From assembly GCF_013315695.1 (NCBI RefSeq), contig NZ_CP054355.1: a stretch of 64,000 nt of DNA. One strand, 5' to 3'. The DNA is from Escherichia coli. Its GTDB lineage: Bacteria; Pseudomonadota; Gammaproteobacteria; Enterobacterales; Enterobacteriaceae. The position numbers and the translations under genes are program-made. Shown piece by piece: positions 24,226 to 24,329 of the stretch; the stretch's first letter is position 1; every line of letters starts with the position of its first letter. The notes under the pieces were generated by a model, which searched no databases, was not told the DNA's origin, and was given only the letters and a program-made list of their open reading frames with translations.

Positions 24226-24263
24226 GAGGGCTGACGCTCAGTGGAACGAAAACTCACGTTAAG
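24226..24263. repeat. Tn3/Tn2-type 38-bp terminal inverted repeat remnant
   Basis: gagggctgacgctcagtggaacgaaaactcacgttaag nearly identical to the Tn3 IR. Confidence 0.6.
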
Positions 24264-24292
24264 AGGTTTTGACTATGATAAAAGTCAAAGTA

Positions 24293-24329
24293 GGGGTGAG
24301 TTTGGATATGGAAATTATTGTACTATAAG
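24293..24329. repeat. Second Tn3-family-like terminal repeat (GGGG...TAAG)
   Basis: ggggtgagtttggatatggaaattattgtactataag; near-identical copy at 38614..38651 in the same orientation. Confidence 0.45.

Follow-up and report, generated by a model that had tools for sequence, protein, structure and literature searches.

Tandem Tn3-family terminal repeats downstream of cjrABC-senB: nested transposon ends, very probably interrupted by an IS1618-type insertion sequence

What are the short repeats that lie in tandem just downstream of cjrABC-senB on an Escherichia coli virulence plasmid, and what left a further copy of one of them at the other end of the same accessory block? The sequence analysed here (the window) is a 64,000-nucleotide stretch of contig NZ_CP054355.1, and its source is a pUTI89/pCE10A-type IncF virulence plasmid; pCE10A is contiguous with window positions 17001-39574 at 99.8%. 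A preliminary description had reported a Tn3/Tn2-like 38-mer, a second repeat of the form GGGG...TAAG and a third copy further along. All three are present, with 0 matches expected in shuffled controls. The tandem pair occupies 24226-24329, beyond the end of senB at 23952, and the third copy marks the opposite end of a block of ~14 kb, in which IS fragments lie together with an FTR1-type iron-uptake operon and scsD-scsC. The possibility that the repeats are internal sequence of a known gene was looked at; they are transposon ends and not gene-internal. As argued below, the region is very probably a stack of nested, dead mobile-element ends, in which the copies that end in TATAAG are TnEc1/Tn6901-type inverted repeats (IRs) interrupted by an IS1618-type IS. 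The features are collected in Table 1.

Table 1. Mobile-element remnants and truncated genes at the two repeat loci (window coordinates)
Feature	Coordinates	Strand	Remarks
IR-A, solo 38-bp terminal IR, probably Tn3/Tn2 subgroup	24226..24263	+	GAGGGCTGACGCTCAGTGGAACGAAAACTCACGTTAAG; outer end toward senB
IR-A interior remnant, 29 bp	24264..24292	+	weakly similar to sequence inside Tn3-type IRs
B1, outer 31 nt of TnEc1/Tn6901-type IR	24293..24323	+	1 nt under usual length; ends ...TTGTAC
TATAAG, putative 6-7 nt right-end remnant of IS1618-type IS	24324..24329	+	assigned from statistics of other loci
Probable ISKra4-family (ISKpn19-like) IS, left-terminal 71 bp	24330..24400	+	starts GAGAGCATG
IS91-family fragment (end downstream of tnpA and C-terminal transposase)	24401..24755	-	NF033538; cut by IS3-family element
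scsC (DsbA-like) 3′ fragment, 56 aa	38443..38613	-	cut at outer end of IR B2
B2, outer 32 nt of TnEc1-type IR, 'AGAG' variant	38614..38645	+	same as miniature-element IR
Right end and 261-nt non-coding region of IS1618-type IS	38646..38906	-	GGGGAAGTCCTT + ATA; aligned with pMT1 IS1618
IS1618-type transposase, last ~100 codons	38907..39204	-	NF033542 match; cut by IS26
IS26, 369 bp only	39205..39573	-	terminal repeat at 39205, pCE10A annotation; cut by next transposon

The first repeat, IR-A, was compared with the Tn3 terminal IR. The two agree at 36 of 38 positions, where shuffled sequences are expected to give 0 such matches. IR-A is like the Tn3/Tn2 repeat throughout the inner 33 nt (positions 6-38, with ACGTTAAG), which are intact, and unlike it at outer positions 2 and 5, the outer GGGG being replaced by GAGGG. 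Thousands of Tn2 and Tn3 ends on plasmids match IR-A at 90-95%, corroborating the reference sequence. A Hamming scan of the window with up to 9 mismatches found no second copy of IR-A other than a gamma-delta-like IR at 18245-18282, and the window holds no tnpA cognate to IR-A, no bla and no second IR, so IR-A stands as a solo scar.

The stretch between the first and second repeats, given earlier as 30 bp, is 29 bp long, and the tandem arrangement itself is as described. By eye, about 15 of its 29 positions match the interior of Tn3 on the bla side, and in BLAST searches a Tn3-type end in pKO-16-21-NDM-1 matches through the spacer at 84%. This end, which has a different interior, was the one weak match found for IR-A plus spacer in another context. 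As IR-A thus retains 29 bp of its interior, a TnEc1-type element appears to have inserted just inside an older Tn3-subgroup end.

The second repeat (GGGGTGAGTTTGGATATGGAAATTATTGTACTATAAG, plus strand, 24293-24329) is of the GGGG...TAAG form, as reported, and measures 37 nt instead of 38. It recurs in direct orientation at 38614-38651 as a 38-nt copy (GGGGTCAGTTTGGATATAGAGAATTATTGTACTATAAG) that differs from it by 2 mismatches and one 1-nt indel. Only the outer portion of each copy belongs to a transposon end. B1 matches the outer 32 nt of TnEc1-type repeats (GGGGTCAGTTTGGATAT....AATTATTGTAC) over 31 nt with one deletion. B2 is identical at 32 of 32 positions to the IR of a 254-bp miniature element on a Klebsiella ColE1-type plasmid, and at 30 of 32 to the tnpA-proximal IR of pDD02162-3. 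In the latter plasmid the intact IR, GGGGTCAGTTTGGATATCGAAAATTATTGTACGTTAAG, overlaps the 3′ end of a Tn3-family tnpA, whose product falls in a protein cluster with members named 'TnEc1 family'. The IRs of the TnEc1/Tn6901 group and of its ~255-bp miniature (TIME-like) derivatives thus match the first 31-32 nt of B1 and B2, and BLAST finds the IR family of the 38-mer in at least 5,000 plasmid records. The natural inner end of this IR is GTTAAG or GGTAAG; B1 and B2 instead end in TATAAG. For neither B1 nor B2 does the window retain a tnpA, a tnpR, a res site, a partner IR or a 5-bp duplication.

The source of the TATAAG ending can be read from pSYM1 (NC_019013.1), in which a 1,367-bp IS110-family element (complement of 14053-15419) interrupts this IR directly behind TTGTAC. 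The element starts TATAAGGGCTTCCCC and ends GGGGAAGTCCCTTCCATTC; GTTAAG and tnpA resume beyond it. In Y. pestis pMT1, IS1618 occupies that position of the IR as well, with flanks ...CTTAAC/IS/GTACAATAATT... (slashes mark the insertion point). The junction is the same in pSYM1, in pMT1 and in 14 of 14 genomic cases, there is no target duplication, and removal of the IS restores the IR exactly. The genomic cases come from a scan of one genome per species, which yielded 131 IR copies in 120 loci. Next to TTGTAC, 70 copies had GTTAAG, 20 had GGTAAG, 14 had TATAAG and 27 had some other hexamer. Every one of the 14 TATAAG copies, from genera ranging from Erwinia to Martelella, runs into the sub-terminal repeat of the IS, and a natural IR ending in ...TTGTACTATAAG and followed by transposon interior was found in none of the 131 (0 of the 117 that lack the IS). 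The IR together with a complete IS occurs in 959 plasmid records, and ~6.9-kb elements bounded by this IR are present in the scanned genomes. In a published account, IS1618 interrupts the tnpA end of Tn6901/Tn6399, and its insertion converts Tn6399a (Tn6901) to Tn6399b (PMC6339943).

At B2 the IS is still partly in place. The remnant at 38646-39204 is identical to the complete pSYM1 IS at 557 of 559 positions, and its coding part matches NF033542, an IS110-family transposase profile, from position 245 to position 341 of 343 (E=4e-29; DEDD-type). This fragment is 95% identical overall to the transposase of the pSYM1 IS, and the two are the same from residue 243 on. The pSYM1 protein in turn matches annotated transposases of the 'IS1618 family' (Y. 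pestis pMT1) at 94%, the 'IS5708 family' at 87% and the 'IS4321 family' at 39%. IS1618 of pMT1 and IS5708 are named IS1111-family members, and the pSYM1 IS is a complete relative of the one in the window; the window itself holds truncated remnants only, B2 retaining 559 bp and B1 a putative 6-7 nt. IS ends of the IS1111 family have sub-terminal IRs of 11-13 bp, with extensions of 6-7 bp on the left and 3 bp on the right (PMC11187229). The right end in the window agrees with this rule, and so does the left end of complete relatives, GAATGG(A) followed by AAGGGACTTCCCC; the window has no left IS end. TATAAG, the hexamer that closes the GGGG...TAAG 38-mer, lies outside the IR and is the right-hand tip of an IS of IS1618 type (IS1111 family). 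The IS110-family fragment had been noted as abutting the copy at 38614. It does lie there, but as part of the same structure, and its belonging to an interrupted IR explains the odd ending common to both copies. The two copies are Tn3-family scars, as proposed earlier, and not intact terminal repeats.

The same copy had been said to truncate an scsC-like gene, and it does. The 56-aa remnant aligns to residues 137-190 of Salmonella ScsC (PDB 4GXZ; E=3e-25), and the PGAP annotation of pCE10A records the fragment as a DsbA family protein without its N-terminus. On the other side, IS26 truncates the IS1618-type IS within its transposase gene and has removed the interior of the element that struck scsC. 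A chimeric query for a plasmid with the IR in scsC and an uncut IS found none, the best coverage starting at the IR.

At B1 the case rests on fewer nucleotides. Because TATAAG was never a natural IR end in the scan, B1 probably once bore an IS1618-type element too, now reduced to 6-7 nt. Directly after TATAAG comes GAGAGCATGAAAAACC..., the start of a probable ISKra4-family sequence in which 24328-24400 is 97% identical to a copy on an STEC1099 plasmid and about 80% identical to ISKpn19. The match includes the ISKra4-family terminus GAGAGCATGAAAAA...; only the left 71 bp is in the window, and the three-gene body of the family (pRiA4b ORF-3-like, resolvase-like and DDE transposase) is absent from it. 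From about 24399 the sequence matches annotated IS91-family elements at 96-98%, a region that PGAP lists as a pseudogene in pCE10A. This reading of B1 needs one coincidence to be accepted, that the ISKpn19-like IS inserted exactly 6-7 nt into the tip of the earlier IS.

Alternatively, the TATAAG of B1 might be a mutated natural IR end, or might have been selected or created by the ISKpn19-like IS. We regard this as unlikely, even with only 6-7 nt at B1 from which to judge. A target preference is hinted at by the TAAG that precedes three of five ISKpn19-type left junctions (24326-24330 in the window, ~4010 in locus L007 and ~4001 in locus L008, one of these sites lying inside IS26), and TAAG before such ends may reflect either target preference or common ancestry of the contexts. 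The ISKpn19-type terminus, set from ISKpn19 copies in three independent contexts, nevertheless excludes TAAG; a mutated natural end, G(T/G)TAAG, would require two specific substitutions; and TATAAG is the exact IS1618-type tip at the exact IS1618 insertion position. TAAG was also considered as part of the ISKpn19-type terminal repeat, since the inverted repeat of one copy extends through TAAGG, and was rejected on finding that two other copies end at GAGAGCATG.

It is highly improbable that B1 and B2 are complete natural 37-38-bp repeats of one Tn3-family transposon, or IR-only miniatures, with the IS110 fragment a neighbour and nothing more. The GGGG...TAAG form of the copies is what such repeats would show, and ~255-bp miniatures whose IR is identical to that of B2 at all 32 positions are found in many Enterobacterales. 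One of them (locus L095) carries an IS1618-type IS in its IR, for a total of 1,623 bp (256 + 1,367). The miniatures, however, end in GGTAAG or GTT(A/T)AG, the scan assigns TATAAG to IS junctions without exception, and at B2 the continuous alignment to the IS refutes this alternative outright. An IS1618-type insertion into a TnEc1/Tn6901-type IR accounts for both copies, and it is compatible with a miniature ancestor for one of them: since the IR of B2 is identical to the 'AGAG' miniature IR and the L095 miniature has received the IS, B2 may descend from a miniature element. 'AGAG' marks one end of the ~255-bp miniatures, and the full-length elements listed mostly have 'CGAA' at both ends. Miniature derivatives, as raised in the preliminary description, therefore exist elsewhere, but neither B1 nor B2 is one as it stands, there being no inverted partner IR ~250 bp from either copy in the window.

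Miniature elements of ~255 bp with TnEc1-type IRs are widespread, occurring in Klebsiella, Salmonella, Citrobacter, Cedecea, Shimwellia and others. Their two ends are AGAG...GGTAAG (CCTGTTTTTT) and CGGA...GTT(A/T)AG (CGCATTATTT). Examples in the scan are L005 (1752-2005), L019, L034, L070, L073, L089, L106, L109 and L110.

How does an IS1618-type element find a single position in the IR? A 9-nt match, UUAUUGUAC, lies in the 261-nt non-coding region (38646-38906, minus strand) and corresponds to IR positions 24-32, flush with the insertion point. The predicted fold has an internal loop that CGUGAGG/CCUCACG closes, and the match occupies its 5′ side. Opposite, on the 3′ side, stands CUAACG in the window and UUAACG in most relatives, matching TTAAC/G across the insertion point. 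Comparison of 10 IS copies shows the loop sequences to be conserved, and six distinct relatives yield one consensus structure, in which the loop cores do not vary and the terminal hairpin has a single compensatory pair. In the published seekRNA model, the top-strand match is 5′ of the bottom-strand match and the two overlap at the insertion point (PMC11187229). The layout of UAUUGUAC and UUAACG in the predicted loop agrees with this model, the matches being short, at 9 nt and 5-6 nt. An Rfam scan of 38500-39300 returned no family, and the 261-nt region as a whole folds no better than shuffled sequences (z = -1.0); the argument uses the local stem and internal loop only. Judged from these predicted features, homing of IS1618-type elements is likely to be guided by RNA from the 3′ non-coding region. 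The guide-target match is in itself a small, checkable illustration of the seekRNA model.

The closest parallel comes from IS4321 and IS5075. Partridge and Hall are said to have described, in 2003, the insertion of these IS1111-family elements in the 38-bp IRs of Tn21-subgroup transposons. Like them, the IS1618 type is an IS1111-family IS with sub-terminal IRs that enters a Tn3-family IR always at one position and in one orientation, without duplicating the target, and that splits and disables the IR. It differs in its transposase, which is 39% identical, and in its target, a TnEc1/Tn6901-type and not a Tn21-type IR. The insertion points differ as well: IS4321 lies between IR positions 21 and 22, as read from pRHBSTW-00147_4, and the IS1618 type between positions 32 and 33. 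We put forward, tentatively and as somewhat short of an even chance, that the IS1618 group forms a second RNA-guided lineage within the IS1111 family that homes to Tn3-family ends, with a target loop (UAUUGUAC...UUAACG) that can be read from sequence. If so, IS1618 and IS4321 would offer two natural, testable guide-target systems for seekRNA reprogramming, and one mobile element would be systematically disabling another across Enterobacterales. The hybrid IR left by an IS1618-type insertion might still bind a Tn3-family transposase.

We infer the following order of events. A Tn3-subgroup transposon would have inserted first, downstream of senB, leaving IR-A and 29 bp of its interior. A TnEc1/Tn6901-type element would then have inserted 29 bp inside this transposon end, giving B1, and scsC would have been struck independently by another member of that family, which may have been a ~255-bp miniature, giving B2. 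An IS1618-type IS would have entered each IR between positions 32 and 33 (...TTGTAC/GTTAAG), most likely guided by RNA and with no target duplication, so that the inner GTTAAG or GGTAAG was replaced by the IS tip and the look-alike GGGG...TAAG 38-mer came to be seen twice. At B1, an ISKpn19-like IS would later have cut the IS1618-type element, to be cut in its turn by IS91-family and IS3-family elements; at B2, IS26 would have cut the IS1618-type IS within the transposase gene.

The IR-A/B1 junction is unchanged in 501-541 pUTI89/pCE10A-like plasmid records, and the exact 38-mer of B2 occurs in about 1,000 plasmid records among the matches listed. Since the junctions are fixed in more than 500 plasmids, they are best read as old nested-insertion scars, inherited as such, at the boundaries of modules. 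The repeats had been called likely recombination break points. They do mark junctions of unrelated modules, but recombination between the copies is not borne out, as no sign of it was found among the junctions compared in these 501-541 records. No sign of activity of these transposon ends was found in the analysis either, and the scars are presumably now inert.

A single IR can confer target immunity in Tn3 and gamma-delta. That the solo IRs have been kept for such a function, for example as TnpA-binding sites giving immunity against Tn3/Tn2- or TnEc1-type transposons, would fit the intact positions 6-38 of IR-A and a junction found in more than 500 plasmids, but it is highly improbable, because clonal descent of the plasmid lineage explains the conservation, the window has no transposase cognate to IR-A, and a related, complete Tn3-family element has inserted in the same plasmid at 39574-43448.

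These structures are remnants of known families in a known arrangement, debris of kinds already described. For annotation, the 'GGGG...TATAAG' 38-mer of enterobacterial plasmids is to be read as an IS1618-interrupted TnEc1/Tn6901-type IR and not as a new end or a miniature, which avoids inventing transposon boundaries. On this reading, the accessory region of pUTI89/pCE10A-type virulence plasmids was built by repeated Tn3-family insertions, which IR-homing ISs then disabled and which IS26 and elements of the IS91 and ISKra4 families cut back.

Other Tn3-family sequences lie nearby. The complete element at 39574-43448 is 3,875 bp long and has perfect 38-bp IRs (GGGCTCCGTTTGGGAAACGGAAAATATTGTACGTTAAG). 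Its tnpA (39607-42594, minus strand) encodes a protein 77% identical to a TnEc1-type TnpA, and its tnpR lies at 42740-43402 on the plus strand. The IRs contain TATTGTAC/GTTAAG and would therefore be potential IS1618 targets. The element interrupts IS26; its flanks differ (GATCT and TGCTA) and the remainder of IS26 is absent, consistent with an adjacent deletion by intramolecular transposition. None of the E. coli RefSeq genome records searched continues past 39574. Between this transposon and the IncFII replication region lie ~930 bp (43449-44380) that are absent from pCE10A, and a 148-aa ORF in this segment (43399-43845, minus strand) has no Pfam match.

On the far side of cjrABC-senB, the gamma-delta/Tn1000-like IR (GGGGGGTGAGGGCCAATGGAACGAAAACGTACGTTAAT, minus strand, 18245-18282) has 3 mismatches to the gamma-delta repeat. 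A truncated Replicase-family rep gene (ORF 17721-18287) adjoins the inner end of this IR, an orientation that is odd for a simple insertion. At ~18341-18477, an IS4321/IS5075-like right-end fragment (about 95% over ~120 bp) runs into a Tn21-like IR of which the outer ~19 nt are present (GGGTCCGCTTGGAAAACGG), a third scar in the window of an IS1111-family IS within a Tn3-family IR. With this Tn21-like IR on one side and IR-A on the other, the cjrABC-senB module (18478-24225) is bracketed by the outward-facing outer ends of Tn3-family IRs.
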